Of a stretch of DNA of 64,000 nucleotides, positions 5,778-55,380 are shown piece after piece. Made by a program: the position numbers and the translations under genes. The notes below the pieces were generated by a model, which saw only the letters and a list, made by a program, of their open reading frames with translations, ran no database searches and was not told the DNA's origin. Numbering within the stretch: position 1 is the stretch's first letter; the number at the start of each line of letters is the position of its first letter. The DNA is taken from the NCBI GenBank assembly GCA_964552775.1, contig CAZKIH010000014.1, positions 26,991 through 90,990 on the forward strand, in the 5' to 3' direction. This DNA comes from an uncultured Ignavibacteria bacterium (GTDB lineage Bacteria > Zixibacteria > MSB-5A5 > CAIYYT01).

Positions 5778-5820
5778 GTTGGAGGCTGACTAAGTGTCTC
5801 AAACGATCTCTAAGGGATTC

Positions 5821-20800: not shown

Positions 20801-22517
20801 CAATCATGACGGCTCCGGTGAATTTAACTGGACACCTACACTGACTCAAGCCGGAACCCATGTGGCGACTTTCCGCGCGAGCGACGGTGAGTTAAGCGTA
20901 TCTGCGTCCGTTAGCATCCATGTATCAAATGTCAACCAGGCACCGCAGTGGACCATCTCCCGCGATACTCTGATCTCGACTAATGACAGTTTAACATTAG
21001 TGGTCTCTGCCTTCGACCCCGACGGCACGCTGCCAGTTCTGTTCGCCGAGAATCTTCCGGCGAATTCGCAGTTTACGGATAGCGCCGACGGACGCGGCGT
21101 GATGATTTTCTATCCCGAGGTTACCCAGGTTGGCGCATATTCGATCAGGTTCATTGCGTCTGACGGCATTTTGCAGGACACTATGTATGTTACTGTGACT
21201 GTTACGCTCGGCCCGTTGCTTGCAGTGGATCCGGACACGCTCAGTCTTCAGAATGACCAAGTAACCGGTTCGATTACCATTTCTAATTCCGGTAAAGGAA
21301 ACCTTGAATGGACGGCAACTGCTGATGCCGCTTGGTTGAGTCTCGATCAGACGTCAGGAAATCTGACCGAATCGGAGTCCGTGACAGTAACAGCTTCGGT
21401 CGATACGTCTGGCATGAGTTCTGGCTCGCACTCTGGACAGGTGATGATAAACTCCAACGAGGGACAAGTTAACGTCACCGTTACCATTCACAGATTGTTG
21501 TCGCTAATGATGCCACCGATTCTGACCAGCGTGCATGTGGTTGACTCGATTCGAATTCCCTTCAATGGGTTCATAGACGCAGATTCATTGCTCGCCACTG
21601 TCGAAGTGGAAACGAAATCGCATCGAGCCAGCAAGAAGATGGTGGTCCAGCAGGGTGGGCGAACGATTCTCTACGTCGCGCCGCTCAATGAGCAGGAATT
21701 TGATGAGCTTGATCTGATAAAGGTTCATGTCGGCCAAAATCTACGCGATGCTCGAGGCGTTCCGCTCAAAGCCAGTGACACATTGCGCGTCTTTCTTACC
21801 GGTGCAGCAATCTGGCCCGGCGATACCAATGCGGATAGCGTTGTAGATGAACGCGATATTCTGCCAATCGGCGTCTACTTCAATCAACAGGGACCACCGC
21901 GTCAAGATGCAGTCCTGAATTGGTACCGTCAGCTTTGCCATGCCGTTGTTGCCGGCAGCGCCTGGGAACCGTATGAATCGATATATGCCGACGCTGATGG
22001 CAATGGCAGCATCGAGTACGAAGATATTTGTGCGATCAGCGACAACTGGATGAAGAGCGTTCCAAACGAATCACTCGCATCCAGATCGTTCGACTCCCGC
22101 GTTTCACTGCAAAATCTGGGGCCGGAGACAATCAACGGCCTTTATACGGCACTTCTTGGCTGCGACGAGTCACAAGGGCGCGCAGAGATCAGAGACATGC
22201 TGGAGGCCATGTTGGTAGAGCAAAAGGAAGTCCTTCCCGATCGCGTGACATTGTGCCAGAACTATCCGAATCCGCTCAACCCCACAACCACAATCGAATT
22301 CTATTTGACTGAAGCGGCTCACGTCAAAGTGACTATACTGAACGTGCTCGGAAGGGAAGTGCGGACATTGTGTTCCGGCAATTACGGTGCCGGTTTTAGT
22401 CGAGTGGAGTGGAACGGCACCGACGACTTAGGGCGAGATGTAGCTTCTGGGGTCTACTACTATCGTCTGCAAATCGGTGATCTCACATTGACGCGGGCAA
22501 TGTTGCTGAGCAAGTAA
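17865..22517 (+). CDS. Giant (1550 aa) T9SS-secreted surface protein: right-handed beta-helix (pectate-lyase-like) region, 5 cadherin-like/Ig repeats, BACON-like domain, dockerin-like Ca-binding repeats, T9SS type-A C-terminal sorting domain
   Basis: Parallel beta-helix repeats (NCRIAGSDSAGVVLELGANSTISGCTFTNN...); about 100-aa repeats PPTFSLTRDT...ATDPDETTP...; BACON-like DPDTLSLQND...NLEWTATADAAWLSL; DTNADSVVDERDIL / DADGNGSIEYEDI; C-terminus LCQNYPNPLNPTTTIEFYL...VYYYRLQIGDLTLTRAMLLSK. Confidence 0.85.
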   Translation: MRINSRTILDLLHRSQYRCCCSTLLAVTLLTALLYGAVDEAALSGGTAHMAILLKPEQTQMNPLRIDTLSYDFTSSLDGWGFLNSPDTVQEYYPDASCIERWRMISVSPVFDIQWSSFSTTGAAQVYCPFRGYNSGSCNYRWWIKSIQTPVPTQWNGVRRIEARIYRSTSGSVYAMIGYKRPGDDVYQYQSWSGSLPGNTWTTIYLDEPSTGAFSNLTGVSVLFGAYSADGNVYVDLVRGLKFVAVTPTLVSPGDSVVIQDNTPNFVWSGDGDSYTLQIDTDPIFATPTIYPGIAAKNYTAPDPLPNTGGYSGFRYYWRVQANYSNGQNSAFSTANRLEISGPHEVPSEFPDLRSAYNAFQRFSGGTILVAPGTYTGPNNCNLGGFGEKPVHVISLSGASATIIDCQGLYRGFYYDLYSVGGTRLDGFTIRNAVGTGDSAAVVCWTGSPDIRNCIIENTRGKGIYCRSGAQPKITNCRIAGSDSAGVVLELGANSTISGCTFTNNRTYGLELRDGTTAQVNGCSFLEVLPGSSGISHSLSASGATLTISNSRFSNSRGTGLVGSNSALTIRNCVFSGNKESYAGGGIGLWLARDKSVTIDSCLFEDNSAPSGGGIFISQVAALNISRSTFVRNSIGIDVSAEASVAKPISVNNTIIAFSTTGAGVRSPNTSIALNFACSDIFGNTGGDWVGTIAGQLGVNNNIGLNPLFCDTANHDLTIATISPCAASNTSCGQIGRYEANCTLNRPPTFSLTRDTVIAEGTALVLTVSATDPDETTPSLSAENLPTNSTFSSPAGGSGTLLFNPDYNQAGIYSVRFIATDGELSDTLVVTITVNDVNRPPTLDLVRDTSIAEGATLSLVIRANDPDGTTPVLTATGVPLHAIFTDNRNGTGVLTFSPQTGQSGNYALGIIASDGKLADSATINIRVYHQNRVPEISVPNDTTVSEGQHLMLTIHAADPDETIPALSASELPPGATFVDNHDGSGEFNWTPTLTQAGTHVATFRASDGELSVSASVSIHVSNVNQAPQWTISRDTLISTNDSLTLVVSAFDPDGTLPVLFAENLPANSQFTDSADGRGVMIFYPEVTQVGAYSIRFIASDGILQDTMYVTVTVTLGPLLAVDPDTLSLQNDQVTGSITISNSGKGNLEWTATADAAWLSLDQTSGNLTESESVTVTASVDTSGMSSGSHSGQVMINSNEGQVNVTVTIHRLLSLMMPPILTSVHVVDSIRIPFNGFIDADSLLATVEVETKSHRASKKMVVQQGGRTILYVAPLNEQEFDELDLIKVHVGQNLRDARGVPLKASDTLRVFLTGAAIWPGDTNADSVVDERDILPIGVYFNQQGPPRQDAVLNWYRQLCHAVVAGSAWEPYESIYADADGNGSIEYEDICAISDNWMKSVPNESLASRSFDSRVSLQNLGPETINGLYTALLGCDESQGRAEIRDMLEAMLVEQKEVLPDRVTLCQNYPNPLNPTTTIEFYLTEAAHVKVTILNVLGREVRTLCSGNYGAGFSRVEWNGTDDLGRDVASGVYYYRLQIGDLTLTRAMLLSK

Positions 22518-23545: not shown

Positions 23546-25090
23546 CTACCCCTCGCACGGCGGTGCCCCGCCACCAAAGATATAAAGTATCAAGTAAACG
23601 GCATCCGAGATATTGATTCCTCCGCTGCAATTGGCGTCACCAGCAGCAAGCGGATTGGGCGCTGCACCGCCGGCGAAGATGTAGTTGATCAAGAACACCA
23701 CGTCCGAGATGTTGACTACAGCGTTGCCGTCGGCATCGCCGGGAAGAAAGTCGCGGACAACGACTTCAAGCGAGTCGGACCATTGGCGTGCTGGTTCCCA
23801 ATCATTGCGCGACAGAACGCTCACCTGATAGACACCTTGGCTTGTCCAGGAGTAATTGACTTGGCAAGTGTCGCCAGACATGTAGGGACCCAGCCAGGCC
23901 GAAGAATCACCATTGCCGAAATCCCATCTGAAGTGCAGGGGACGAGCGGCGCTGTCCACGCAGCTCGTTGAATAGCTGCACGTCGAGTCTGGCATAACAA
24001 AGGAGCAACCCTCTGGAAGTTGAGCCCGATCTGGTCGAGGTGCGGTGAGCTCGCGACTGGCGACTTCGAAGCTAATCTGGAGCTGAAAACTATCGACATA
24101 GATCAGAGAAACGGAGAGGTAGAGATCGTGCGTGGACCTTGCACCACTCTGTCTGATTCGACTCGCATACGCGGCTGTGTCGGTTGCACCGCCAACCAGA
24201 ACATCATATCCTCCATCATAGTAGCATGTCGGAGTGTAACGAACATTGTATTTGCTGTGCAGGAATGAATTGGCAATCGAGTTCGAAGTCGGCAAGGCTG
24301 TGAAAAGGAACTGGTACGTGCCTTGAGTCCAAATCGTATGCAACGCAGACCGCGTCGCCGGGCAGTATCCTCAGCCACTGCTTGCTGCCCATTCGATAAG
24401 AACATTGTGCGTAAAGCTCCCGGAAGCTGTGTCGGTACCAGTCTGGCCGGGAATGGCCGCAGCGGCAGCGTCAATCCAATTGGCGGTGAAAAGGTACGAA
24501 GGAGGAGGGCCCGGGCTGGAGTAAGCCGTGTGGCCTTCTCCGTTGGAAACCGCGGCCAATACCATGATGTTGTCCTGCTGAATCACTCCAAACGAGGCGG
24601 AATTCCAGATGACGGTCTGCCTGATCGTGTCAGTATAACCGAGCGAGATCGATTGGTTGTAGGCAAAGTCGAGTAGGCCGAAGTCAAACGGGACTCCATA
24701 AGAGTCTGCGTAGCGAGATACCGGTTCAACTACGTAGACCCGTAGAGTACCATTGTAGACCGAGCTATTTAGTTTTTTCCCGGCAGGTGTTGCAGGCTTG
24801 GCGTCTTCTCGTGCTGAATCGTAATCAGGCTTTACAGATTGCGGGTCTGGTGGAACTTGTGAAAAGTCGTGTGCCAGAATCAAATCTTGGGCAGCACTTG
24901 CCCCGGTCTCGACCACTGCGGGGCTCGCAAAAAGGGGAACAGATATCACGAGCAGCAGGTAGACTGCACCAAACAATTTAGAAATTGCGCCCTCTATACG
25001 TAGTCCTGACCTCAACGATACATCCACGGCGCCATCTGGCGACCGGTGCCGCTTATTCTGTCGATCCCTGCGTGAAAAGCATGAACACAT
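23546..25090 (-). CDS. Secreted PKD- and dockerin-containing protein split by a single in-frame UGA (ORFs 24371..25090 and 23546..24343 share a frame); pseudogene, sequencing error or UGA recoding
   Basis: Read-through gives ...IEWAASSG-[UGA]-GYCPATRSALHTIWTQGTYQ... with continuous sequence character; PKD-like FRWDFGNGDSS; C-terminal dockerin pair GDADGNAVVNISDVVFLINYIFAGGAAP...GDANCSGGINISDAVYLILYIFGGGAPPCEG. Confidence 0.6.
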
Positions 25091-32000: not shown

Positions 32001-33815
32001 AACAAAATGTGCGAAATTCGCGACTGTTTTGAAAAAGGCGATTATCTCGGAATGGCCAATCATATCCGAGAAATGAGGGAGCTATCTGCGTCATTTGTTT
32101 TGAAGCTGGCCGCTGCAATACCCGGTCTTGGTTTTCTCCAGTTAGCCGAGATCAAGAAGTACGCAAATGCCTCTGTAGATTGCCAAACCACTCTGTTGGA
32201 AGAGCAATGTCCCCTCTTGGATGTGATTTGCCTAGCTGCAAATGGTGGTGCCTGTGATTATGACCACCCATACTTCATGGTATCAAAGCGAAGCCCTGTA
32301 ACTCTGCAGATCGTCGGTCAAAACGGCGACACTATTAGCGATGAAGTGGAAGCAACTAGCGGTGCTAACCCAGGTAGTGTTGGAGGGTTTCTGGTCAGCA
32401 CTGATCGAATTCACTCTCTCGGCATGGCAATGGACAGCCTGCAGTCATACACGATCGTAGCTACAGGCGATGAGACCTCAAGTGCTGGCACTACATGCGG
32501 AATGTCGCTCGTTTTGTATCCGGGTACCGGCCGAGCATTTAGCCTAATTTTCGAGGGCATACCTGTGGTTCCGGGTACTCGCGCCAGTATCACGATTGGG
32601 GACAGAGGCAGCAGAGTATCAGCGGCAAGTTTAGATTACGATGGAGATGGGACTCCCGAATCCGTTGTTCTGCCTTCTGCATCCAGCGATAGTAATACGA
32701 TTCAGATCAAATGCTTTGTGCAGGGCAATCTTTCAACCGCTGGCATTGCCGCCAACGTCTACGATGCCGCCGATAATCTAGTTGCTTCGCTCGTTACCGA
32801 TCAGAACGGCCGCTGCGAAACCAGCAAACTCATGATCGGTGAGTATCGAGTGGTTCTCGAATCACCCCTCGGCTACACCTGCAACGAACCAATCAAGACA
32901 GTAGTATTAATCACCGACTCGGCAACTGTCAATTTTGAATTGACCAAACTCAATATTACTCCCCAGCAGCGCTCTCGCGACTATTGGGCTGGTCAACTCA
33001 CTAAGGTCTTGCAGAATAAACGTGCGGACTTCACCAAAGCGCAATTCTCGAGATTCGCCGGCTTGATCTCGCAACACTTCAACGACAACCTCCTAAACTC
33101 AGTTGCAACTTATGTCGTTCCACAACCGGCAAATCAAAACGACAGTCTGATCATGATGAAGAAGCTCCTGACCTTTGGCTGCACCGAAGTCAACGAGCCA
33201 TTCCTGAAGAAGGTCGCCAAAGGCGAACTTGTTGCTCTGATGCTCAATGTGGCTGCCGGCAAGGTAAGTCAGACTCACATTGTTTCTCACGATGGAGTGA
33301 CTCTTAGTCAGGCAATCACCTATTGTGACATGCTGATCAACGAGGCCGATTGCCCGATAGGCACTGTACCATCGTGGTTCATGCCCGGATATCCTAACCG
33401 ACTTGAGATAATGCGCTATCTCAAGGCGGCCTTTGTGGCGGGCCTGATCAACATCGGAGTCACGTTGCCTTCCGGGCAGATTCCGCTGGACATCATGGAC
33501 ATCGCGTACAAAGAGTTTGCGACTCAACCAATCCCGACCGCTTTTGAATTGAGCCAGAATCATCCCAACCCCTTCAATCCAATCACGACGATTCGTTTTG
33601 CCATCCCGCAGGCAGGGAATGTGCAACTTGAAGTTTTGAATGTGATCGGACAGCGGGTTCGCACGCTCGTCGATGAGACCAAACCGGCCGGTACCCACGA
33701 AGTCCAATGGGATGGACGCGACAGCAACGGCAATGCTGTCTCATCTGGTGTCTATCTCTATCGCATCAAGGTAGGCGAATTCACCGCGACCAAAAAGATG
33801 GTGCTGATGAAGTAA
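29052..33815 (+). CDS. Giant (1587 aa) T9SS-secreted protein with two LamG/concanavalin-like lectin domains, FN3-like and SdrD-B/Cna-B-like modules, T9SS type-A C-terminal sorting domain
   Basis: AAGGAG RBS then ATG; signal peptide; two LamG-like modules (TWYHVACTWDGVEWQIYVNG, EVWHHVAVTYDGQAIRFIVDG); CCGTVYADRNGNEVHDVGEEIAGASVFVLD; C-terminus LSQNHPNPFNPITTIRFAIP...GVYLYRIKVGEFTATKKMVLMK. Confidence 0.85.
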   Translation: MKNLSHILSERREATMSLLKAKKIVWQVLILSGLLLSNSLVFGQVSPPCKFGNSVEFHQIGDSVKVPSVALNNMPQGTVEAWVKFDNLNSASPHFGEMFIVSRAKAPGGDFRLEKARTTVPEANKFVFSLDNGNTNLYSTTVAQVKTWYHVACTWDGVEWQIYVNGILENSLPDTRTLPNNNSLSVLVGAYNYSVAATAVSFDGTIDEIRISNIVRTPSDFCLTGECGSDDNTVALWHFNETTGAAASDATGHGYDGMIHGATHVNCTASTAACSNFDTPANLAADWITVQGSHSVVSTPTPHQGTGALRTQEPGGSNPYSLLKHRDLQASGGEYNFWFYQSNTVGGAVFMQSDPGGGNPSTGAARCYRMGFTANDGFAGGTMDFGRINSDGTSTQLWGYHAPPFVMNQWVNFFVRFGEGGVIQVGFIQGNTSFSQSFVDPDPITQPGEFYLLSDRTNYFDDVCFNPVAVEPANYSEAEFGGSHCFNGVDDYITVANSPSLDLGSTYTIEAWIKMRNLPYLDDYTIVSKWAGSESGGYLFAITGGFSPRGRLMLYAGFSVYATSAMTLTPEVWHHVAVTYDGQAIRFIVDGTSEEAVDAPGGTATNSVPLTIGINANHFTDPSEDPNYFRGQIDEVLISNRVKLPSEFCLTAPCIPDLHGSTAALWHFDEADISDASGRNNSGTVVGSGCEGCPGSPVLTAEATCNNITLYWDEVANADQYQIIRNDIRIVSLPSGTTTYIDNTVIQGSPNYQVRALRAGCSDGTSELVHIGLLEIPAPPSQIETTPRLAAIEVEWQAVQKATSYELYEDDQLIGRTIDTKYLSSVSRGTHCYQVKSVNDCGKSELSSPVCDEARFEVSCCGTVYADRNGNEVHDVGEEIAGASVFVLDPEFGFFPLHATSSDPSGRFCLTVPYHRLGQLWAYAGDYSSEKEAMFFTRDETDHKLATFRFGPCLHLSAADQCLQSTATLVPVLSAVPTGMGLMNKMCEIRDCFEKGDYLGMANHIREMRELSASFVLKLAAAIPGLGFLQLAEIKKYANASVDCQTTLLEEQCPLLDVICLAANGGACDYDHPYFMVSKRSPVTLQIVGQNGDTISDEVEATSGANPGSVGGFLVSTDRIHSLGMAMDSLQSYTIVATGDETSSAGTTCGMSLVLYPGTGRAFSLIFEGIPVVPGTRASITIGDRGSRVSAASLDYDGDGTPESVVLPSASSDSNTIQIKCFVQGNLSTAGIAANVYDAADNLVASLVTDQNGRCETSKLMIGEYRVVLESPLGYTCNEPIKTVVLITDSATVNFELTKLNITPQQRSRDYWAGQLTKVLQNKRADFTKAQFSRFAGLISQHFNDNLLNSVATYVVPQPANQNDSLIMMKKLLTFGCTEVNEPFLKKVAKGELVALMLNVAAGKVSQTHIVSHDGVTLSQAITYCDMLINEADCPIGTVPSWFMPGYPNRLEIMRYLKAAFVAGLINIGVTLPSGQIPLDIMDIAYKEFATQPIPTAFELSQNHPNPFNPITTIRFAIPQAGNVQLEVLNVIGQRVRTLVDETKPAGTHEVQWDGRDSNGNAVSSGVYLYRIKVGEFTATKKMVLMK

Positions 33816-35160: not shown

Positions 35161-35211
35161 TTCGGCAATTGTAACACTACTCTCAGGACGAGGAGGGTCA
35201 AAGGACTCACT

Positions 35212-36054: not shown

Positions 36055-36055
36055 T

Positions 36056-38617: not shown

Positions 38618-40657
38618 ATGCGTTTGAACAAATTGTTTCTAACGATCTGTGCAGTTCTAGGATTGAGTTTGGCATCAATCCCAACTGCGGCACAACCGTC
38701 GCCCGTGGCGAGGTATCTGTTTAACGGCAATGCAAACGATGAGAGCGGAAACGGACACAACGGTATTGTCACTGGTGCGATCCTGGTTCAGGATCGACAC
38801 GGCAACGACAGTGGGGCATTTGGCTTCAGTGCAGACGGCGACTGCATTACGGTCCCTCACTCGCCTGCACTTTATCCTGAATCTGGAGTTATTGTCGAAG
38901 GCTCGATCTATCCAACGGCCTATCCTCCAACCGATCATCAATTTGGACACTACATGGTATTGGGTAATCAAGGCTATGACCTCAGCATACGAAGTGATAG
39001 CACAATCAACTTCTATATTCTAAAGTCACTTTTGCCAGGCGCTGATTGGGAGCGAATTCCATCACTAAGCCCTATTCCGTTGAACCAGTGGACGAGCCTG
39101 CGCGGGGAGTACAGTTTCTCCACGGGACTCATGAGATTCTTTGTGAATGGAGAATTGCAGGGCACTAGGTCCATCAGCGTTTCTGGTTGGCTGGATCCTA
39201 ATTCGGATCTCAAAATTGGTGGACACTTGTGGGAAGGAGTGTCGTCTTTCCGAGGCAGTATTGATGACATCACAATCTGGGATTGGTGGCAGCCATCTGA
39301 CACCCTCCGCATCGGCAACCCAACCTGCCTACAGTCTGTTCTGCCAACCCAGCAGGCAGTTCCGATCTATCTCGACAATCCCGACACCGTCAAGGGCCTC
39401 GACATTCCGCTCAAATACGACTGGGCGAACGATCCCTTAAGTATCAGCTTCGCAGGAACCCGAATGGATGGTGTCTCAGGCGTACACTGGTCAATCGACG
39501 CAGATTCAAATCGTCTGCGCATTGTTTGGGGCTGGCAGGGCGACCCGAGCGAACTACTTTTACCGACCGATGCAACTTCAGCCAACCTGCCAATAGCGAA
39601 GATCGTCTTTTCTGCCGACTATGCCTGCATTGACGATTACACCTCGCCACCGGACACGACCTCAATCTGGGTAGGTGAAGACCTCCAGAGATTGTTGATC
39701 GTTGACAAGAATGCCGTCGAATACGTTCCCGTGGTCGATACCACCAGCACTCGAACGCGCCACTATCGAGTCGGGGATGCCAATTTCAATCAGTCCATAA
39801 ACATCTCGGATGCCGTGTTCCTCATCAACTATATCTTCGCAGCCGGAACAACTCCGGCCTGCTTCACCGCAGCTGATGTCAACGGTAACGGTATCATCAA
39901 TATCTCAGATGTTGTCGCGTTGATTAACTACATCTTCTCCGGTGGTGCAACTCCGGGTTCAAGCCAACTTTGTAGCTATGTCGGCCCTCTTTTCAAGTCA
40001 CAACCCGCCTCAGCCAATGTCGAGTCACAGGAATCTGTTACCCCCAATCTGAAGACAATCGACATCACAACGCAGACGACCTCTGAACTTCAGGCTGCTC
40101 AACTGACATTCGACATTCACGGGAAGGTGCAGAAAATTGAAGTCAACAGCATCGATCAGCGATTGCAAGTCTTTGGCGGCACCGCTGACCGCGAATACCG
40201 TGTTGGCTTAGTTGACTTAACAGCTGCCACGACTCTTCCTGCCGGAGAACATCAACTTCTGACAATTACTTACTCAGGCGAAGGCGAATTGACGATGCGC
40301 GAGGCTGTTATCGTTGACTCCGATGCCGAGCCGATGGTCACAACAATTCAATCGACCAAGGCAGAGCAGAGTCTGCCGACCGAGTTTACCTTATCGCAGA
40401 ACCAGCCCAATCCCTTCAATCCGACTACTGATATCAGCTTCAGCCTTCCACGTACGGGAGCCGTGAAGTTGGTAGTCTACAATATCCTTGGCGCGGAGAT
40501 CGCAACTCTCGTCGACGAAGTCCGGGCGGCTGGGATACACACGGTGACCTGGAACGGACAAGACAAGTCCGGCCGGGCGGTAGCATCGGGAGTCTATCTC
40601 TATCGACTGAGCACGTCAGACTTCTCGGCCACGAAGAAGATGGTGTTGATGAAGTAG
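38618..40657 (+). CDS. T9SS-secreted scaffoldin-like protein: LamG domain, two cohesin-like modules, dockerin-like repeat pair and T9SS type-A C-terminal sorting domain
   Basis: Signal peptide; LamG-like N-terminus; cohesin-like AVPIYLDNPDTVKGLDIPLKYDWANDPLSISFAG... and ...AQLTFDIHGKVQKIEVNS...; dockerin GDANFNQSINISDAVFLINYIFAAG...DVNGNGIINISDVVALINYIFSGGATP; C-terminus LSQNQPNPFNPTTDISFSLP...YLYRLSTSDFSATKKMVLMK. Confidence 0.8.
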   Translation: MRLNKLFLTICAVLGLSLASIPTAAQPSPVARYLFNGNANDESGNGHNGIVTGAILVQDRHGNDSGAFGFSADGDCITVPHSPALYPESGVIVEGSIYPTAYPPTDHQFGHYMVLGNQGYDLSIRSDSTINFYILKSLLPGADWERIPSLSPIPLNQWTSLRGEYSFSTGLMRFFVNGELQGTRSISVSGWLDPNSDLKIGGHLWEGVSSFRGSIDDITIWDWWQPSDTLRIGNPTCLQSVLPTQQAVPIYLDNPDTVKGLDIPLKYDWANDPLSISFAGTRMDGVSGVHWSIDADSNRLRIVWGWQGDPSELLLPTDATSANLPIAKIVFSADYACIDDYTSPPDTTSIWVGEDLQRLLIVDKNAVEYVPVVDTTSTRTRHYRVGDANFNQSINISDAVFLINYIFAAGTTPACFTAADVNGNGIINISDVVALINYIFSGGATPGSSQLCSYVGPLFKSQPASANVESQESVTPNLKTIDITTQTTSELQAAQLTFDIHGKVQKIEVNSIDQRLQVFGGTADREYRVGLVDLTAATTLPAGEHQLLTITYSGEGELTMREAVIVDSDAEPMVTTIQSTKAEQSLPTEFTLSQNQPNPFNPTTDISFSLPRTGAVKLVVYNILGAEIATLVDEVRAAGIHTVTWNGQDKSGRAVASGVYLYRLSTSDFSATKKMVLMK

Positions 40658-42421: not shown

Positions 42422-42490
42422 AAGTCGAGAACTTGAATTGATTGCAGCGGAATCGGCCTTCAAAGCGTGAGCCGACATTAAGATTGGAAT

Positions 42491-45270: not shown

Positions 45271-48141
45271 CTAATCGCAGGGGGCGGCACCGCCTGAAAA
45301 AATGTAGTTGATGAGATAGACCACATCCGAAATTGTGATGAGTCCACTGCAATTTGCATCACCGGCCTCCACGGGATCAGGAGAAGCGCCGCCAGAAAAA
45401 ATGAAGTTGATCAGGAAGACTGCGTCGGAGATTGTAATCATCCCGCTCCCATTCGCGTCACCAGGCACATAGGGTCTAGGAGGAACTATATACAGTGCAA
45501 ATATACGCGAGTAGTCAGAAGGCACCCCTGCGGAAAATGGTCTTACCCTCCAATAGTACACCGAGTCCGGTATCAAGTCAGCAGCAACTTTGAAACTAGG
45601 GGATGCCAAGCCCGAGACATCGTAGATCGGTGAGCGAAAATCGTAATAGCGATCCAGCTGAAGTTGAAAGCTGTCAGCCGCGGGGAATTTCTTGTCCAAG
45701 AGTCCCGACCAGTTCAGAGTCGGCCTAAGGTTGGGCCAGGGAAGGCCATTGGGCGGATTAATCGAGGATTCCGATTCAACAGTGAAATAGAATAGCATGG
45801 TGTCGCCGAAATCCGGTGTGCTGTAGTTGTGGAAGATCACGCGATTCTGGGTGCCGTCGATACGAATGCCGCAATTCAACCGAGAATCGGGTGCGCTGTT
45901 GGTTCTCCTGAATATAGCGAATTGGTACTCTCCGTATACTAGGTTGAAGTCAGCTGACGATTCATCGATCTCGCCATTTCGATCTGAGTCCAACCGCCAG
46001 TAATCGGCACTGGCGACAGTACGGTAACTTCGGGAGATTTCGAAGCTGTCTGGATTTTTGACGCCAATACTCGCGGTATTGTACACGGTTGCCACCATTT
46101 CATCGGCAAGAACGGGGGCATCAGGGAGAGTGTTAATCAATACGATTAAGTTGTCGATTGCAACGTATGGAAGAAGCGCGGCAATTGCAACATCGGGATT
46201 ACCATCCCGATCAAAGTCGGCCGAAGTGAAGGAAAACGGGACATTAGTAGTTGGCAGAGCAACGCGTTGGGCGAACGTGAAGTCTCCTCCCGCAAGGCCG
46301 AAATATATCTCCATTTCTTTCTGGGCGCCGTCAACGAGCACCAAATCGAGCCGATGGTCGCGATTGATATCAGTGGCCAGTACATTGTAGCAGACTCCTT
46401 GCACGGAGATCGAGTCAAGCCTTTTCACTCCTCCAAGGCCATCGCCAAGACCCACAAGAATGTGGCTGTAGGTAATACCACCTGGTGGTGGGATCATCAT
46501 CACGAAATCGGAATTCCCGTCACGGTCAAAATCGGCCATTGAGTTTGCAGTTGTTCCGCTGTACGAGGTTATGTTTAAAAGGAGATTACTCCAACTGGCC
46601 GTGAAATTGCCACTGCCGTCGTTCAAGAAAATGGTAACGCTGTTGACACCTGCGTAGCCGGCCGAACCAACGATATCGTCAAAACCGTCGCCGTTGAAAT
46701 CCGATACTTCCGCAGTTTTCACAGTGTCTGGAAATGTGGCAGAACTGAGAAAACCGCCTTGGCCATCTCCAAAAAGCATTCGGCGGGGAGACACCAGGAA
46801 ATCGGCGTACGCGTCGTCGTTGAAGTAGCCGATGCAAACATCGGTGGTGCTGATCCAACTGTGGCTGTAGCTTCGCGTTGTGTAGTTTCGACTCCCATTG
46901 TTAAGAAATATCTGAATTCTATTGTCGTCAACAGCAACTATATCCGGTAACGAGTCCTGATTTACAAATCCAACCCGTAGCCCAGCTCCAGAAACAAGGC
47001 TACTAATCTGTTGCGGAGTTGAAAAACCGGCACTGCCGTTCCCGTAAGACACCCAGACACCATTACGACTCAGCATCCCTGAGAACACAAGGTCGGCATT
47101 ATTGTCACGATCGAGGTCGCTGGACTTTATCGTCCAAGCTTCACAAGAAAAGGGGCGTTGAACATTGAATCCGACTACTCCGGTGCTGTCGATCACGGAG
47201 ACGAAGCTCGCCTTCACCAGGGTATCTGTTCCTGCAGAGCTGACAACAGATAGACTGACATCATACTCGCCGGGATTCGAGTAGGTATGGATCGGATTGG
47301 CCGCTGTGCTGGAATCACCATCTCCAAACCTCCAAAGCCAACTACCGATAGTTCCACATGTGCGTACTTCTTCAGAGAAAGCTACCTGTAACGGTGCGGC
47401 ACCGAATCGCGGGCTGGCAGAGAATCCGGTCGCCAGGCCTGAAAAATCAGTTTCTCCGACAACCTTGAAACGAGGATAGCCTGGGGCTGGTGCGGTCCAA
47501 AAATCGTTCCACTCGACCCATTGACCGGCGCTATACATCCAATTGTCGCATACCGTGGCTTCCGTGCTGTCGAACAAAACTGACGAATACGGGCCTCCTG
47601 ACGTGCTGCGATACTCGATACCCATGTAAAATGGACCACCAACACAAACTCTACCAGGAATGTCGACAGTTCCAAAATGCGGAAAGGCAAAGTGGCCAGG
47701 GAGGCATGTTACTCCAAATCTCTTTAGTTCCAGGCCCGGCCCAGCACAGGGGTTTCCTGAAACAGCCAGATCGTAGATTACGACGTCCACATCAACAGGC
47801 CATTCTGCTGTTTCCGGATCATAGAGTGTAAAGGAAAATGTATTGAAAATGAACGGGTAAGTAGGAGATCCCGAGCAGGTCGCCGGATCAAAATAGGTTA
47901 CTGTCCGAATTCCGTAGTCGTAGTCCTGCCAATAATAGCCGGAACCCGGAACGTCCTTCTGAAGTTGACAATTCGCAGTCGCATCGCTGTGATCTCGATC
48001 ATACAGAAGTGAATCTGAAACAGAAGTCGGTGTCGCTTGCTCGTTAGCCACCGTGAGAGGAGACAAGTGGAAAATCAGTAGTGAAACAATGATCCAAAGA
48101 CGCCAATAGTATCGTAACATGATGCCCTCCCGTTTGAGCAA
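45271..48141 (-). CDS. Secreted 956-aa protein with FG-GAP/VCBS-type beta-propeller repeats, PKD domain and C-terminal dockerin pair
   Basis: Signal peptide LWIIVSLLIFHLSPLTVA; repeated DxDxDGxxD loops (DLDRDNNADLVF, DFNGDGFDDIV, DFDRDGNSDFV, DINRDHRLDLV, DFDRDGNPDVA); PKD WRFGDGDSSTAANPIHTY; C-terminus GDANGSGMITISDAVFLINFIFSGGASP...GDANCSGLITISDVVYLINYIFSGGAAPCD. Confidence 0.85.
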   Translation of the reverse strand: MLKREGIMLRYYWRLWIIVSLLIFHLSPLTVANEQATPTSVSDSLLYDRDHSDATANCQLQKDVPGSGYYWQDYDYGIRTVTYFDPATCSGSPTYPFIFNTFSFTLYDPETAEWPVDVDVVIYDLAVSGNPCAGPGLELKRFGVTCLPGHFAFPHFGTVDIPGRVCVGGPFYMGIEYRSTSGGPYSSVLFDSTEATVCDNWMYSAGQWVEWNDFWTAPAPGYPRFKVVGETDFSGLATGFSASPRFGAAPLQVAFSEEVRTCGTIGSWLWRFGDGDSSTAANPIHTYSNPGEYDVSLSVVSSAGTDTLVKASFVSVIDSTGVVGFNVQRPFSCEAWTIKSSDLDRDNNADLVFSGMLSRNGVWVSYGNGSAGFSTPQQISSLVSGAGLRVGFVNQDSLPDIVAVDDNRIQIFLNNGSRNYTTRSYSHSWISTTDVCIGYFNDDAYADFLVSPRRMLFGDGQGGFLSSATFPDTVKTAEVSDFNGDGFDDIVGSAGYAGVNSVTIFLNDGSGNFTASWSNLLLNITSYSGTTANSMADFDRDGNSDFVMMIPPPGGITYSHILVGLGDGLGGVKRLDSISVQGVCYNVLATDINRDHRLDLVLVDGAQKEMEIYFGLAGGDFTFAQRVALPTTNVPFSFTSADFDRDGNPDVAIAALLPYVAIDNLIVLINTLPDAPVLADEMVATVYNTASIGVKNPDSFEISRSYRTVASADYWRLDSDRNGEIDESSADFNLVYGEYQFAIFRRTNSAPDSRLNCGIRIDGTQNRVIFHNYSTPDFGDTMLFYFTVESESSINPPNGLPWPNLRPTLNWSGLLDKKFPAADSFQLQLDRYYDFRSPIYDVSGLASPSFKVAADLIPDSVYYWRVRPFSAGVPSDYSRIFALYIVPPRPYVPGDANGSGMITISDAVFLINFIFSGGASPDPVEAGDANCSGLITISDVVYLINYIFSGGAAPCD

Positions 48142-49314: not shown

Positions 49315-52300
49315 CTACCCCTCGCACGGCGCTGCTCCCCCACCAAAGATATACTGAATCAAATACACCGCATCTGAGATGTTGATTCCACCGCTGCAAT
49401 TGGCGTCGCCTGCATCAAGCGGATTGGGTGCCGCGCCGCCCGCAAATATGTAATTGATCAGAAATACAACGTCGGAGATAGTCACTACACCGTTTCCATC
49501 AGCGTCACCGGGCACCAAAGTCTTGAATCTAAAAGTTTGCGATGACCAAGTAATTCCCTCGTAGAGATCAACAGCTTTGACCGTCCACCAGTAATCTTCA
49601 GAATAGCTGAGTGGTGAAGCTAGCGAAAAGATGGTATCAGCAATTCCTGCGAATTCCACTTTGAACAAGAATCCCGGATCGAGCGCCAGCACCAGAGTAT
49701 AGCTAACCGAATCAAGTGGGTCATTGTCTATAGCTCGCCGCCATGAGAATTGCGGAGTAACTCCCACCGAGAGCTTGTTGTTCGGTGGCAATGCCAAACT
49801 GAAACTCGTCGGGAAGTCGTTTCGCCAGTTTGTCCAGAAGTCGTAGGTCACAGACCATACCGAGACGGCACCTTCATCATCCGCAGTCTGAATACGGTAG
49901 AAATGGTGGGTCTCATCAGTTAACGAATCAACTTCGACAGATGGCTGTCCGAACGCTGTCCAATACGACTTGACATAGGGGCCGGCAAAATCGGGGTTAT
50001 CGTCAACAAGCACAAAGTACCGAAGATGTGCGGCATCATCGCTGGGATCAGGATCAGATGCTGAATACCAGGACAGCGCGGGAGTGAGGTCATTTACCGG
50101 TTCACCTGCCTTGGGGTATATCGTTGCGGACACCGCATGAGGAGGAGTATTGGCTTTGTTCAGGAAGAAGACATGCGAACCTGGCGAGAATGCTGATGTT
50201 CCACCGTACTTGTCGATGCCCCTTACGCGCCAGTGGTAATAGGAATCATCAGAGAGATCTCCGTAGCAGACAATCGAGCCGATCTGGAGGCCAGTTATCG
50301 CGTCCTTTGCTACCAGTGGATTTGGGCCAAGGCTGTCTTCGCGAATAGTCACATTGCAGAGCAGTACTTCGAACAGATTATTCGAAGCAATCTGCACGTT
50401 GTACCATAAGCTGTCATTGATGTCCAGATCGAGTGATTCGGTCCAGAGTAGCCAATCGTCAGCCAGAACTTCTGTAGAATCGATGGGCGCAAACACTGAC
50501 GGGGACGTCGGAGCAAGATTGGTGTTGACTACCAAGACAGAAACTTCAAGCGTGTCGGCCGCCAACGAGTCATCCTCCACGGTGAATGCAGGTTGAAAGA
50601 AACCAGCCTGTGTATAATCAGGGCTGAACTCGAATACTGCGCTGCCGTTTCCGCTGTCGACGAACGAGGAGTTTAGTGGTAAATCCGATGCTGCAAAATG
50701 CAGATCGTCGCCATCGATATCGGTTGCCACCAGGTGCAATCTGAGTGTATCACCTTCACTTACCAAGATCGAATCCATCTCCGGAAAGACGGGAGCATCA
50801 TTGCGAGCTACATATGAGATGGAAACAAGCAACGAATCCGCGAGAAAACTATCTGAGGCAATGACCAGGAAACTCGAGTCCGACGATCCATTCGGCGGGG
50901 CACCATGCAAGTCTGTCGAGTCGACACTTAGCCAACCCGGATAGTGCAGATACGATATGAGTCCCGTCGGTCCGTCCACGTCTGAAAAATCCGCGATATA
51001 GCTGAAGGGAATATCTTCGTAGGCCGTCACTTTGTCTTCAGAGGTAATCTCCGGCGCGGCGTTTTCGCAGGCAACCCCGTATTTGCCCATCAAGGCTTCG
51101 CACTCATTGTTTTCGGGTGCACACGGTGAGCTATTCCGAAGGTGATAATCTCCGCTAGCCGTATCGCAGAAGAGCGGATCAGCGGAGATATTTCCATTGA
51201 TCCCGAGTTGCGGCGCCAGGGAATCGGTCCAGTCACCACCTTCGTTGCCGAAGATGTTTGTGCAAGAGATCGAGACGTTCTCGTAGGAACCTCTGGCATG
51301 AATCGCAGGGCCATTCTGATTGAATGCGAAGATGCAGGAATCGAATTGGATGTGTCGATTGCTCGTTTTGATTACATAGACAGCCGCGCCGGAATCGGCA
51401 CGATTATTGATGAATGTACAGCGTCGGAATATGCCTTCATTTGGAGTGCTTCCTCCTTGCTCGTAGACTGCGCCGCCTTTCGCAGCTATATTGCCATCGA
51501 AGACTGTGCCGGAGATAGAGATATATAGAGGGTTACCCGACCGAAAATTGATTGCTCCGCCTTCCGAAGTGCTTGTCCCGTTCTTTCGAAACGTGCTGTT
51601 AGTAATCGTTGGCCAGACATCCCCAGCTAATTGTAGACCGTAGAGTGCATTTCCTTCGAATAGACAAGAGTCGAACGTCCAGTGAGCGTCGGCGGACTGT
51701 ATTCCAGCACCATTGTCAAGCACAGTGACATTGGTAAACGTACCCCAACCTCGTTGGTGCGGCGCCGCGCCGACTTCTGCACGATCAGGAATCGCGGTGT
51801 ATCCAATCGCACGCAAATTCGAATCAATCAGACAATCCCGAACAGATGCAATTTGCATGCTGAGAATTCCGGTGCCAGCGTTGTGGGAAATTCTACACCT
51901 ACTCACGGCGCTAACTTCAGAAACGCCGTAGCGGTGTATTCCATCCCCCTGGTTCTGTGAAATGATACAATCCTCCACTGAGCGTAGTACACTTCCAAAG
52001 GCTATTCCATGTCCTGAATTATTAGAGACTATGCACGAGCTGACCACTGATTCGGAGGACCGGAGTCGGATTCCATACTCACGATTTTCGACTATGCGAT
52101 TGTGAGGAAAGGAAGGAGAGGAGGATTGGCAGATAATTCCGCCATGACCATTCCGGATTGTGAAGCCAGTCAATACGCAGGTGGAGTCCTCGCCACTCAC
52201 AAACCGCACCACGCTACTGTCACCATTCTGGATCGGATTGGAGAGCGTATCGCCATCGATGATGGTCTGATAAATGTGCATCGTATCTGCGTCGATGAGA

Positions 52301-55300
52301 TAGTGGCTCGCAACAGTGATCTTCTTGCCAAGGAAATTGATGCGTTCAAAATAGTGTCCATTGTCGACCAACACTGTGTCACCGCTTACCGCAGCGTCAA
52401 TAGCTGACTGAATCGTAGGATACTCATGCGGCACCTCTCTGCGTGGGTCAGGAGTAGCGAACGGTAATGCACCCATGTCATTTCGCGTGCCGTCAGGGTC
52501 GTTGTAGATTGGCTCTGGATCGCCGGCATTGACGCATGGGGAATTAGCTGATAAATTGAAATTCAGTTCAACCGGCGCCTGGAAAAGAGGATCTGCCGAA
52601 ATATTGCCAAGCCCAGGAGTTGCCCCACCATCGTAATCAATTCCATTGTTCCAAACATCGTTATATGCGAGGACTGCGAAGTTGCCAGAGACTCCGTACT
52701 CAGATGAACCCACTACAATATTATTCTTTGCAACTGCCAGACCAGACAAGCAATAGAACCCGCGGCTATTACTCTGAAACGTGTTATTGGTTATGTCTGC
52801 CCGCGTGCTATCTATATAGACGCCGATACAGGCGTTTCCAACTGTGTTCGAAATGAAGAGGTTCTTCTCGATACAAGGATGGGAATTGTGGCAGAAAATC
52901 AGCGTTTGATCTCCGACAAGCCCTGTAAATTTGTTACCTCTGATTCTCACACGACTTCCATCAGTTGCGGTCAAGAGATGAATAGCATTAGAATTCTGAA
53001 ATGTGAACCCACTTACCTCTGAAGTAGAATCAACGCTCCCATCGCAAATCAGGATCGGTGTCATCGGCACAGCACCTTGGAGAATCGTTGAATCTGGACC
53101 TGATTCAGACGCCAGAACAATACTCTTCTGGACTAGATCGAGGTTTTCCAAGTAAATGCCTTTGGAAACCAGCACCGTATCCCCATCCACCGCCACATCA
53201 ATTCCTCGTTGTATGGACGCGAACGGATTCGTCTCACTACCGTCTCCAAATGAATCATCACCGTTAGGATCAATGTGCCAAGTCGGACCGGCATAAACGA
53301 GTCTAATTAGCTTGGACACAAATGCGTCCTTACTACCCAAGCTGCCATCAAAAGGTCTCGCCGTCGGGAAATTTGATGATTCAGTGCATCCAGTCACGTA
53401 CGCGTTCCCCGCCAAGTCCACCGCGATGGCATAGCCTTCCTCACTATCAGTGCCGCCCAGATAAGTGCTGTAAATCAATCTAGTGCCACCAGGACTAAGT
53501 TTCGTCACAAAGGCGTCACTACTGCCATTGTAACTGCCGTCAAAGGGACTGGCCGTGGGGAAATCAAATGACCGCGTCCCTCCCATCACATACGCGCTCC
53601 CCGCCAAGTCCACCGCGATGGCATAGCCAACGTCATCATTAGTGCCACCCAGGTACGTGCTGTAGACCAGGCTATTGCCATCCGAGCTAAGTTTTGTCAC
53701 GAAGACGTCACCACCACTATTGTAGCTGCCGTCAAGAGGGTTAGCAGTCGGGAAATTAGTAGACCGAGTATCTCCCGTCACGTACGCGCTCCCGGCCAAA
53801 TCCACTGCGATGTCACGGCCAAAGTCTTCATTAGTGCCGCCCAGATAAGTGCTGTAGACCAAGCTGTTACCGGCGGGACCAAGTTTCGTCACGAAGGCGT
53901 CATTGTTGCCATTGGAGCTACCGTCAAAAGGGCTGGCCGTCGGAAAATCGGATGACGATGTCCTTCCGGACACGTACGAGCTCCCCGCAAAGTCCACCGC
54001 GATGTCATAGCCTTGGTCATAACCAGTGCCTCCCAGATAAGTGCTGTAGACCAAGCTATTGCCAGCCGGGCTAAGTTTCGTCACGAAGGCGTCGCCACCA
54101 CCATTGTAGCCGCCGTCAAACGGATTTGCAGTGGGGAAATTAGATGACGACGTCCCTCCCATCACGTACGCGCTCCCTGCCAAGTCCACCGCGATGGCAT
54201 AGCCAACGTCATCATTAGTGCCACCCAGGTACGTGCTGTAGACCAGGCTATTGCCATCCGAGCTAAGTTTTGTCACGAAGACGTCACCACCACTTTTGTA
54301 GCTGCCGTCAAAAGGATAGGCCATCGGGAAATCGGACGAATAAGTTAGTCCGGTCACGTACGCCCTCCCCGCCAAGTCAACCGTGATGCTACTGCCAAAC
54401 TCGCCATTAGGACCGCCGAGATACGTGCTGTAGACAAGGCTATTGCCATCCGAGCTAAGTTTCGTCACGAAGACGTCATTATTGCCACCATTGAAACCAC
54501 CGTTGAGAGGACTGGCCGTCGGAAAATCGGAAGAATTAGTGCTTCCCGTCACGTACGCGCTCCCCGTCGAATCAACCGCGATCGAATAGCCTATGTCCTC
54601 ATTTATGCCGCCAAGATAAGTGCTGTAGGTTAGACCGACTGCGAGCGTACCCATCGCCTGCCGACTTGAGCCATTGAAATTCGATGTAGTTGTATATTCC
54701 GGTGACCGTGAGAAGGTAGCGGTACCGGAAAGGATGCCAAATGCCGGTGTCTGGAAGGGTACGATTAGGTCTCCCAGCTTGGTCCTCAAAATCATTCTTC
54801 CGTCGGCAAATAAAGAAGTGCCTTCGGCCCCATCATATTCAACTTTAATCTGTGCTATATCTGCACCCGGCGCGACAACGAACTCGTAAGCTGCCTGACC
54901 ATTACCGTCGCCGGCGTATTTCAGGTCGATACCGGGATAAATGTCTTTGAGCGTGATCGCTTCGTAGTTCGGCACGTCGGTATGCCACTTCGCCGGTTCA
55001 TTTCCGAGGAAGTAGTTGCACTTGTATTCCATCAATCCACCGCTTATCACTTGGGGATTCGCATTTGATCCAACGAACGAAGCCCTAATCACCAAAGTCT
55101 CAACGCTATCCGCCTCACGGCCAAATCTGTCCAATGATCGAAAATCGTCGACTCCCTGCAGTCGCACAGCCATTCGCTCTTCCGAATCAGCCTTCGCCAC
55201 AGTTCTACAGAACTGGTAATAGATGCCATCATTGGCTATCCAAATTGTTGCGCCACCAGCATCCGTTCGATAGAGAACCTTCTCATCCCACTGACCCACA

Positions 55301-55380
55301 TTCTTCGTGAATGCCACCGGCATTGCACTCACTTGCAGCGACAGCGCCAGGATGAACAGCGAAGCTATGGCGGTTTTCAT
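49315..55380 (-). CDS. Giant (2021 aa) secreted protein: about 8 SBBP beta-propeller repeats, two parallel beta-helix regions, cadherin-like and FN3-like modules, C-terminal dockerin pair
   Basis: Signal peptide MKTAIASLFILALSLQVSA; repeats ...VYSTYLGGTNDDVGYAIAVDLAGSAYVMGGT.SSNFPTANPFDGGYNGGGDAFVTKL... x8; beta-helix repeats; C-terminus GDADGNGVVTISDVVFLINYIFAGGAAP...GDANCSGGINISDAVYLIQYIFGGGAAPCEG, about 90% identical to the C-terminus of gene 23546.. Confidence 0.85.
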   Translation of the reverse strand: MKTAIASLFILALSLQVSAMPVAFTKNVGQWDEKVLYRTDAGGATIWIANDGIYYQFCRTVAKADSEERMAVRLQGVDDFRSLDRFGREADSVETLVIRASFVGSNANPQVISGGLMEYKCNYFLGNEPAKWHTDVPNYEAITLKDIYPGIDLKYAGDGNGQAAYEFVVAPGADIAQIKVEYDGAEGTSLFADGRMILRTKLGDLIVPFQTPAFGILSGTATFSRSPEYTTTSNFNGSSRQAMGTLAVGLTYSTYLGGINEDIGYSIAVDSTGSAYVTGSTNSSDFPTASPLNGGFNGGNNDVFVTKLSSDGNSLVYSTYLGGPNGEFGSSITVDLAGRAYVTGLTYSSDFPMAYPFDGSYKSGGDVFVTKLSSDGNSLVYSTYLGGTNDDVGYAIAVDLAGSAYVMGGTSSSNFPTANPFDGGYNGGGDAFVTKLSPAGNSLVYSTYLGGTGYDQGYDIAVDFAGSSYVSGRTSSSDFPTASPFDGSSNGNNDAFVTKLGPAGNSLVYSTYLGGTNEDFGRDIAVDLAGSAYVTGDTRSTNFPTANPLDGSYNSGGDVFVTKLSSDGNSLVYSTYLGGTNDDVGYAIAVDLAGSAYVMGGTRSFDFPTASPFDGSYNGSSDAFVTKLSPGGTRLIYSTYLGGTDSEEGYAIAVDLAGNAYVTGCTESSNFPTARPFDGSLGSKDAFVSKLIRLVYAGPTWHIDPNGDDSFGDGSETNPFASIQRGIDVAVDGDTVLVSKGIYLENLDLVQKSIVLASESGPDSTILQGAVPMTPILICDGSVDSTSEVSGFTFQNSNAIHLLTATDGSRVRIRGNKFTGLVGDQTLIFCHNSHPCIEKNLFISNTVGNACIGVYIDSTRADITNNTFQSNSRGFYCLSGLAVAKNNIVVGSSEYGVSGNFAVLAYNDVWNNGIDYDGGATPGLGNISADPLFQAPVELNFNLSANSPCVNAGDPEPIYNDPDGTRNDMGALPFATPDPRREVPHEYPTIQSAIDAAVSGDTVLVDNGHYFERINFLGKKITVASHYLIDADTMHIYQTIIDGDTLSNPIQNGDSSVVRFVSGEDSTCVLTGFTIRNGHGGIICQSSSPSFPHNRIVENREYGIRLRSSESVVSSCIVSNNSGHGIAFGSVLRSVEDCIISQNQGDGIHRYGVSEVSAVSRCRISHNAGTGILSMQIASVRDCLIDSNLRAIGYTAIPDRAEVGAAPHQRGWGTFTNVTVLDNGAGIQSADAHWTFDSCLFEGNALYGLQLAGDVWPTITNSTFRKNGTSTSEGGAINFRSGNPLYISISGTVFDGNIAAKGGAVYEQGGSTPNEGIFRRCTFINNRADSGAAVYVIKTSNRHIQFDSCIFAFNQNGPAIHARGSYENVSISCTNIFGNEGGDWTDSLAPQLGINGNISADPLFCDTASGDYHLRNSSPCAPENNECEALMGKYGVACENAAPEITSEDKVTAYEDIPFSYIADFSDVDGPTGLISYLHYPGWLSVDSTDLHGAPPNGSSDSSFLVIASDSFLADSLLVSISYVARNDAPVFPEMDSILVSEGDTLRLHLVATDIDGDDLHFAASDLPLNSSFVDSGNGSAVFEFSPDYTQAGFFQPAFTVEDDSLAADTLEVSVLVVNTNLAPTSPSVFAPIDSTEVLADDWLLWTESLDLDINDSLWYNVQIASNNLFEVLLCNVTIREDSLGPNPLVAKDAITGLQIGSIVCYGDLSDDSYYHWRVRGIDKYGGTSAFSPGSHVFFLNKANTPPHAVSATIYPKAGEPVNDLTPALSWYSASDPDPSDDAAHLRYFVLVDDNPDFAGPYVKSYWTAFGQPSVEVDSLTDETHHFYRIQTADDEGAVSVWSVTYDFWTNWRNDFPTSFSLALPPNNKLSVGVTPQFSWRRAIDNDPLDSVSYTLVLALDPGFLFKVEFAGIADTIFSLASPLSYSEDYWWTVKAVDLYEGITWSSQTFRFKTLVPGDADGNGVVTISDVVFLINYIFAGGAAPNPLDAGDANCSGGINISDAVYLIQYIFGGGAAPCEG
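53560..54290. repeat. Tandem SBBP-repeat coding units of about 165 bp within the giant gene, including an about 130-bp near-perfect direct duplicate (about 53581-53715 versus 54150-54285)
   Basis: Identical stretch ...CCAAGTCCACCGCGATGGCATAGCCAACGTCATCATTAGTGCCACCCAGGTACGTGCTGTAGACCAGGCTATTGCCATCCGAGCTAAGTTTTGTCACGAAGACGTCACCACC... read twice. Confidence 0.6.

Follow-up and report, generated by a model that had tools for sequence, protein, structure and literature searches.

Gram-positive cellulosomes are the textbook case of assembly by cohesin–dockerin pairing, and the question raised by the 64,000-nucleotide stretch analysed here (the window, to which all positions refer unless a different locus is named; contig CAZKIH010000014.1 of assembly GCA_964552775.1, from an uncultured bacterium placed in Zixibacteria by GTDB) is what such parts do when they sit on a protein with the sorting signal of a type IX secretion system (T9SS). 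The gene at 38618..40657 on the + strand had been described in an initial annotation, made from the sequence alone, as a candidate cell-anchored scaffoldin in a cellulosome-like, T9SS-anchored assembly system for glycan binding or degradation. We found that its product consists of a signal peptide, a LamG domain, a first cohesin module (CohA), a dockerin, a second cohesin module (CohB) and a T9SS type-A C-terminal sorting domain (CTD), and that the last four modules form a conserved, portable cassette that at least 34 protein clusters carry behind N-terminal payloads of various kinds. The system probably represents a surface protein network rather than a cellulose-degrading machine.

The open reading frame (ORF) encodes 679 amino acids (aa; the coordinates include the stop codon), appears in the ORF list, is preceded by a strong ribosome-binding site (AGGAGG, 6 nt 5' of the ATG) and has an identical 679-aa counterpart in NCBI-derived data (P0001); both peptide strings quoted in the initial annotation are present in its translation. 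Promoter and terminator scans around the gene gave matches at chance level. The N-terminus (~aa 1–25; 38618..38692, +), reading MRLNK, LFLTICAVLGLSLA and SIPTAAQ, has the typical n-, h- and c-regions of a Sec-type signal peptide by inspection. The variable N-terminal payload is in this case a LamG/concanavalin-A-like lectin domain (aa 88–222; 38879..39283, +; Pfam Laminin_G_3, E = 1.2e-14, 55.1 bits vs a cutoff of 27.6). It is followed by CohA (aa ~226–368; 39293..39721, +), which contains VPIYLDNPDTVKGLDIPLKYD and was assigned with a family profile, by the dockerin (39773..39934, +), and by the CTD-proximal and highly divergent CohB (aa ~465–582; 40010..40363, +), which contains QLTFDIHGKVQKIEVNS and was assigned with AlphaFold, Foldseek and hhalign. 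The T9SS type-A CTD closes the protein (aa 597–679; 40406..40654, +), with NCBIfam TIGR04183 matching aa 597–676 of 679 at 39.5 bits against a cutoff of 23, and the motifs PNPFNPTT, SGVYLYRL and KKMVLMK succeeding one another at the extreme C-terminus. In Pfam, the CTD scored 21.1 bits for Por_Secre_tail (PF18962), under the cutoff of 27, and 34.7 bits for FlgD_ig. The protein thus has two cohesin-family modules and no catalytic domain, and the Pfam scan revealed no CBM3-type substrate-targeting module in it, only the LamG/concanavalin-A-like domain.

The dockerin is canonical. Pfam Dockerin_1 (PF00404) matches aa 386–439 above its cutoff (E = 8.2e-11, 42.4 bits vs 22.9), and the two F-hand repeats of this type-I-like module, with the Ca loops DANFNQSINISD and DVNGNGIINISD, are identical at 16 of 24 positions. 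The calcium ligands of each repeat, at loop positions 1, 3, 5, 9 and 12, are D, N, N, N and D in that order, and the position-12 aspartates, D398 and D431, are invariant across the 34 cassette homologues described below. The co-occurrence of a dockerin pair with a T9SS domain, as initially proposed, was therefore borne out, and the loss of Ca-binding Asp/Asn residues that the initial annotation had considered as a counter-indication was not observed.

The cohesin modules were more elusive. Pfam Cohesin (PF00963), the model with which the initial annotation had proposed to verify them, matched neither region even at E ≤ 10, be it region 1 (CohA) in the 38618 protein and seven relatives or region 2 (CohB) and its close family members, and NCBIfam models likewise gave no cohesin match. 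Word-indexed homologue searches with the isolated cohesin-like domains returned almost nothing, and neither an 8-sequence region-1 profile nor a 9-sequence region-2 profile matched a cohesin among PDB sequences. When the small profiles were aligned to six Pfam-confirmed cohesin segments with hhalign, region 1 gave a weak match (E = 0.0017 over 36 columns) and region 2 gave none.

A link between region 1 and known cohesins emerged at the family level. With the region-1 family profile, 630 cluster representatives passed E ≤ 1e-3, of which 130 also passed E ≤ 1e-10; many matches carry two to five tandem copies. Among 90 relatives scanned over their whole length, Pfam Cohesin was present in 28 (best E = 3.5e-29), a T9SS CTD in 52 and a dockerin in 33, and Pfam Cohesin and the region-1 profile covered the same stretch in the four relatives checked (P0252, P0156, P0168 and P0182). 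A 47-sequence CohA profile, with the query as its first row, matched 20 PDB sequences at E ≤ 10, all 20 of which are cohesins; the best were 4uyp (ScaC, E = 5.8e-6), 5m2s (2.4e-5), 2vn5 (4e-5) and 1g1k (7e-5), with alignments spanning nearly the whole module. An hhalign comparison of region 1 with six Pfam-confirmed cohesin segments gave E = 5e-5 (probability 67%). These profile comparisons place region 1, as a divergent member, in the cohesin family.

Region 2 was connected to cohesins through its predicted structure and through profile comparisons. The AlphaFold model of CohB is a nine-strand beta-sandwich with a mean predicted local distance difference test score (pLDDT) of 80 and a core of ~90, and the top 24 matches in a Foldseek search against the PDB were all cohesins (E = 5.7e-7 to 5e-5, template modelling score up to 0.66), among them cohesins of types I and II as well as 2xdh, a non-cellulosomal cohesin of Archaeoglobus fulgidus. 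A 27-sequence CohB profile aligned with the CohA profile (hhalign probability 93.9%, E = 1.6e-7), and an iterated CohB profile reached the Pfam-confirmed cohesins of P0033, P0037, P0056 and P0252. A BLAST link that joined region 2 with the P0033 and P0037 cohesins was set aside because the flanking dockerin and CTD could drive the alignment; the link to these two proteins was later backed by the iterated profile instead. Judged from sequence, the homology of CohB to cohesins holds only transitively, via the CohA profile and the iterated profile. Region 2 adopts a cohesin fold and is a remote homologue, from a subfamily that current domain libraries miss. Both modules of the 38618 protein thus belong to the cohesin superfamily, as the initial annotation had supposed from their sequence pattern, and did not resolve into the unrelated Ig-like domains that it had named as the alternative.

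Multi-domain relatives were found, in a scan of GTDB species representatives, in metagenome-assembled genomes (MAGs) of Zixibacteria and other phyla of the Fibrobacterota–Chlorobiota–Bacteroidota (FCB) group, including Latescibacterota, Krumholzibacteriota, KSB1, Eisenbacteria, Calditrichota and bins labelled Ignavibacteria. We used local hidden Markov models (HMMs) for CohA, CohB, dockerin (Doc) and CTD to resolve architectures in MAG loci and cluster representatives. The four-module CohA–Doc–CohB–CTD cassette recurred in loci L002 (1208 aa), L003 (1574 aa) and L004, CohB–CTD formed the ends of giant proteins in L008 and L016, and L017 and L060 encode 430-aa CohA–CohA–CTD anchors. Among 150 cluster representatives, 34 had CohA–Doc–CohB–CTD, with N-terminal regions of 0 to 1100 aa ahead of it; other architectures were CohA–CohA–CTD (39), CohA–Doc (13) and Doc–CohA–Doc (9), and several representatives combined three or four cohesins with a CTD. 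The metagenome proteins P0134, P0146, P0187 and P0205 have four tandem CohA-type cohesins and a T9SS CTD, reach up to 2056 aa and represent the scaffoldin-like part of this family.

N-terminal payloads on the 34 cassette proteins comprise LamG (10), FG-GAP (3), C-type lectin (3) and one CBM_4_9, together with propellers, TSP3, PKD, BACON, fn3 and a few phosphatase-type domains; apart from the latter, the families listed are binding or adhesin-like modules. Each cassette protein therefore unites the roles of payload, adaptor and anchor, unlike a scaffoldin that is dedicated and non-catalytic. The designation as a scaffoldin fits the 38618 protein insofar as it has two cohesins and is non-catalytic, and does not fit its nature as a portable cassette with a payload, in a window whose dockerin-bearing proteins showed no catalytic family of carbohydrate-active enzymes (CAZymes) above threshold.

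In these architectures the dockerin always lies directly N-terminal of the CTD-proximal cohesin, and the striking constancy of this Doc–Coh–CTD triad could mean that the dockerin folds back on CohB (or CohA) of its own chain, as a clasp or stalk that provides a rigid spacer for LamG and recruits nothing. The linker between dockerin and CohB, ~22 disordered residues in the AlphaFold model, is long enough for such a fold-back, and C337 (within CohA) and C452, which flank the dockerin and are at least 90% conserved in the 34 cassette proteins, could staple the arrangement. Binding in cis would, however, give no role to the other cohesin of the cassette or to the numerous family members that have only a dockerin or are Coh–Coh–CTD proteins. 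It is also at odds with loci L009 (positions 5736–9340) and L010 (5838–9366), each of which encodes an adjacent pair composed of a ~800-aa protein ending in CohA–Doc and, after a gap of ~245 bp, a ~290-aa CohA–T9SS CTD protein. This pair looks like the fused cassette divided into an adaptor and an anchor and implies binding in trans, and we regard an exclusively intramolecular clasp as rather doubtful.

Candidate cargo for binding in trans is encoded within the window, in which we refer to genes by the number that opens their coordinates. Four proteins end in canonical dockerins: 6786, a DUF7451 protein (8778..8969, +; canonical Ca loops and local dockerin HMM); 23546, a PKD protein (23549..23743, −; Dockerin_1, E = 1.9e-7); 45271, a PKD and FG-GAP protein (45274..45465, −; Dockerin_1, E = 4.5e-8); and 49315, a 2021-aa SBBP propeller/beta-helix protein (49318..49512, −; Dockerin_1, E = 6e-8). 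In Pfam, the dockerin of 6786 fell under the cutoff (E = 0.002, 18.7 bits vs 22.9), and both of its Ca loops are canonical by inspection. Sec-type (SPase-I-type) signal peptides were recognised on three of the four (6786, 45271 and 49315), the start of 23546 being unclear, and none of the four has a T9SS CTD. The products of 6786–8972, 45271–48141 and 49315–55380 are not obvious lipoproteins.

Besides 38618, T9SS CTDs terminate two giant proteins, the beta-helix/Big_9/BACON protein 17865 (22263..22514, +; TIGR04183, 28.7 bits vs 23) and the 1587-aa LamG protein 29052 (33564..33812, +; 32.8 bits vs 23), so that all three type-A CTDs noted initially were recovered. The six dockerin proteins counted at the same time were confirmed by Pfam for 38618, 23546, 45271 and 49315 and by canonical loops for 6786. 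The sixth, in 17865, was not confirmed: Pfam gave no dockerin match, and two EF-hand-like loops, DTNADSVVDERD and DADGNGSIEYED, lie 56 aa apart. These loops fall at 21822–22025 (aa 1320–1387), ~80 aa before the CTD. They could be what is left, in degenerate form, of a Doc–Coh–CTD triad, but the space is too short for a cohesin.

Recognition positions are alike in the cargo and scaffold dockerins, with I-S at positions 10/11 and I-N or I-Q at 17/18. Sharing of these residues makes a common specificity plausible, and with it a cross-linking of anchored units and cargo. The cargo dockerins have a cysteine as the fourth residue of Ca loop 2 (DA[ND]CSG) and another ~5 aa past the final GG (..APC..), a pattern also seen in P0053, P0072, P0162 and others, and many family members add a cysteine just before loop 1. 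These cysteines look like a disulfide clasp. The dockerin of the 38618 protein is without the cargo-type cysteines and has C415 and C452 instead.

Domains on the dockerin- and CTD-bearing neighbours are DUF7451, PKD, FG-GAP, SBBP propeller, generic beta-helix/NosD, Big_9, BACON and LamG. These assignments bear on whether the system is a true cellulosome analogue, in which a T9SS-anchored scaffoldin organises polysaccharide-degrading enzymes. Cohesins, dockerin and surface anchor are all present, the beta-helices of neighbours weakly resemble lyases (Chondroitinas_B, E = 0.0031; Pect-lyase_RHGA_epim, E = 5.7e-4), and a comparable inference was drawn for Cloacimonadota, with GH18, GH57 and peptidases (PMC8542988). 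However, no glycoside hydrolase, polysaccharide lyase or esterase catalytic family scored above threshold in Pfam on the dockerin- or CTD-bearing proteins or on any other protein of the window, none of the 25 families listed as payloads in the 34 proteins with the cassette is a CAZyme catalytic family, and a CBM3-type substrate module is absent. A polysaccharide-degrading complex is consequently highly improbable in our view. Since neither the window nor the listed payload families include a CAZyme catalytic domain, the initially proposed "cellulosome-like glycan degradation" is not supported; what stands of the proposed assembly system are its T9SS-anchored cohesin–dockerin parts.

Cohesins and a canonical dockerin joined to a T9SS CTD, amid Sec-secreted dockerin proteins, make a T9SS-anchored assembly the most economical reading, and we consider it moderately likely that the 38618 protein serves as an assembly unit on the cell surface of a diderm, Zixibacteria-like bacterium (FCB group), contributing to a cross-linked, T9SS-anchored cohesin–dockerin network. 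On the model of the T9SS of Bacteroidota, the protein would be exported by Sec and fold in the periplasm, its CTD would be recognised and the protein passed through the T9SS translocon, and the PorU sortase would then remove the CTD and join the new C-terminus, just after CohB, to surface lipopolysaccharide. Anchored in this manner, CohB would be membrane-proximal and LamG distal. By analogy with established cohesin–dockerin biology, Ca-dependent binding by CohA and CohB would capture the dockerins of other secreted proteins, for which the four neighbours with very similar terminal dockerins (6786, 23546, 45271 and 49315) are candidates, and the protein's own dockerin may plug into a cohesin of another anchored unit, either of the same type or of the abundant Coh–Coh–CTD anchors. 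All of these pairings are putative. The outcome would be a network on the surface in which binding proteins of the lectin, propeller and beta-helix types are displayed, as a coat for adhesion or substrate capture.

Several observations weigh against such a network. Structure prediction, which the initial annotation had recommended, succeeded for CohB and gave a poor model for CohA (pLDDT 66), for which the fold search yielded nothing significant; the best match by probability was a cohesin (4dh2), with a probability of only 0.51 and E = 0.27. CBM2 sandwiches also match the CohB model, slightly more weakly than cohesins do (E = 5e-5 to 1e-4), and the deeper CohB profile found nothing significant among PDB sequences, with NagJ cohesin-like modules as its best match (E = 0.63). 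None of the T9SS core genes (SprA/Sov, PorK/L/M/N, PorU/V) lies within the 64-kb window; the three CTD cargos encoded there imply a T9SS. The dockerin neighbours, having no CTD, show no evident route across the outer membrane. Moreover, dockerin genes may be numerous genome-wide, in which case their proximity to 38618 would mean little, and the genes do not form an operon-like locus, as they are scattered over both strands among housekeeping, signalling and mobile-element genes.

The CBM2 matches, and a CohB that has no significant direct sequence match to known cohesins, would also be expected if the modules had the fold or ancestry of cohesins and no longer bound dockerins, with CohB acting as an Ig/CBM-like spacer or a carbohydrate-binding module and the dockerin as a Ca-binding stabiliser. 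Generic Ig/CBM-like spacers often precede T9SS CTDs, and dockerin-like EF-hand pairs are found in many non-cellulosomal proteins. Yet cohesins occupy every one of the leading 24 fold matches of CohB, its profile is homologous to that of CohA, and cohesin-type modules, dockerins and CTDs co-occur combinatorially across hundreds of clusters, which is hard to account for without interaction. We therefore find it very unlikely that the modules have lost dockerin binding.

A surface network built on cohesin–dockerin binding allows a more novel reading, which is unlikely as it stands: the Doc–Coh–CTD triad would be a self-assembly device. The dockerin of each anchored protein would insert into the CTD-proximal cohesin of its neighbour, head-to-tail, and this daisy chain would polymerise into an outer-membrane protein lattice with free CohA sites left for cargo. 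As a bolder corollary, CTD-less dockerin proteins might dock in the periplasm on CTD-bearing cohesin proteins and hitch-hike with them across the outer membrane via the T9SS.

The remaining genes of the window, on both strands, include housekeeping functions (CysS, M42 peptidase, signal peptidase I, NrfD/Fe-S), signalling proteins, unknowns and a mobile-element block. Directly upstream of 38618 are three consecutive + strand ORFs (34093–38443; 355, 280 and 809 aa) that matched no Pfam family at E ≤ 0.001. Directly downstream on the same strand, 41144–44821 encodes a GAF–SpoIIE (PP2C-type) phosphatase and a Ser/Thr kinase with TPR repeats, and a regulatory link to the surface proteins is possible. 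Just upstream of 29052, within 25331–28197, a GH3-family gene of the acyl-acid amido synthetase type, not a glycoside hydrolase (−), sits beside an Acyl_transf_3 membrane acyltransferase (+). The mobile-element-like block (57103–63692) lies just past the giant dockerin gene 49315..55380 and comprises a DnaB_C-like protein (57103..58269), a tyrosine integrase (58633..59712), a large serine recombinase (59841..61604, −) and a DnaB-like helicase (61550..63043, −).

In the cassette, cellulosome-type parts are connected to the type IX anchor of diderm phyla from the FCB group, most of them uncultivated. With its CohB subfamily missed by standard domain libraries, surveys that depend on Pfam Cohesin would undercount it, and the region-1 profile alone covers 630 protein clusters. 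If the modules bind as we infer, these bacteria would cover their surface with modular coats in which lectins, propellers and beta-helix proteins take the place of enzyme complexes, and such coats bear on attachment to particles or partners in sediments. The cassette could also yield new orthogonal cohesin–dockerin pairs for Gram-negative surface display, and it prompts one to ask by which route dockerin proteins that have no CTD arrive at the surface.

Among the closest known counterparts are the anchoring and adaptor scaffoldins of clostridia (Acetivibrio cellulolyticus ScaA/ScaB/ScaC and Clostridium thermocellum OlpC; PDB 4uyp and 4dh2), which, like the 38618 protein, join cohesins to an anchor at the cell surface and in some cases carry a dockerin on that chain too. 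Their cohesins supply the best sequence match of CohA (4uyp) and some of the best fold matches of CohB (4dh2 and 5nrm). In contrast to the 38618 protein, with its diderm host, T9SS CTD anchor, LamG payload and cohesins invisible to Pfam, clostridial scaffoldins are Gram-positive, are anchored by surface-layer homology domains or sortase, and organise CAZymes. Cohesins and dockerins are also used outside cellulose degradation, as in the A. fulgidus cohesin 2xdh and the modules of Clostridium perfringens NagJ/GH84 (2jh2 and 2w1n); the CohB fold search placed 2xdh and 2jh2 near the top, and 2jh2 is the best, non-significant, sequence match of the CohB profile. These systems differ from the 38618 protein in organism and anchoring and have no T9SS link. 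The A. fulgidus protein has a dockerin as well as its cohesin. Peer et al. (2009), as cited by others, reportedly described cohesin–dockerin modules outside cellulosomes.

Within the FCB group, a cohesin–dockerin pair was modelled with AlphaFold 3 for the giant symbiosis proteins Cag_2037 and Cag_2038 of Chlorobium chlorochromatii (bioRxiv 10.64898/2026.03.19.712371). As in the 38618 setting, these are large surface proteins encoded by neighbouring genes, in this case of Chlorobiota; they differ in their export by a type I secretion system, in having one cohesin and one dockerin on separate proteins, and in lacking both a CTD and a Coh–Doc–Coh cassette. A further case is a 3,755-aa scaffoldin-like protein inferred from MAGs of 'Ca. 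Stygibacter' (Cloacimonadota), with tandem, Pfam-visible cohesins in large number, CBM2/CBM3 and a T9SS-type CTD, for which attachment to the cell's own surface was proposed, and with dockerins on secreted proteins, its cargo including GH18, GH57 and peptidases (PMC8542988). Both proteins come from candidate phyla of the FCB group and join cohesins to a T9SS-type CTD, whereas the 38618 unit is a compact four-module cassette with its own dockerin and, across the family, varied binding payloads. A full-text literature search returned no paper that joins Zixibacteria with dockerin or type IX secretion, and we found no description of the CohA–Doc–CohB–CTD cassette in the cohesin, dockerin and T9SS literature examined. 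Compared with these systems, we rate the parts and the principle as known, and the arrangement, with its cryptic cohesin subfamily and non-enzymatic payloads, as new and widespread.

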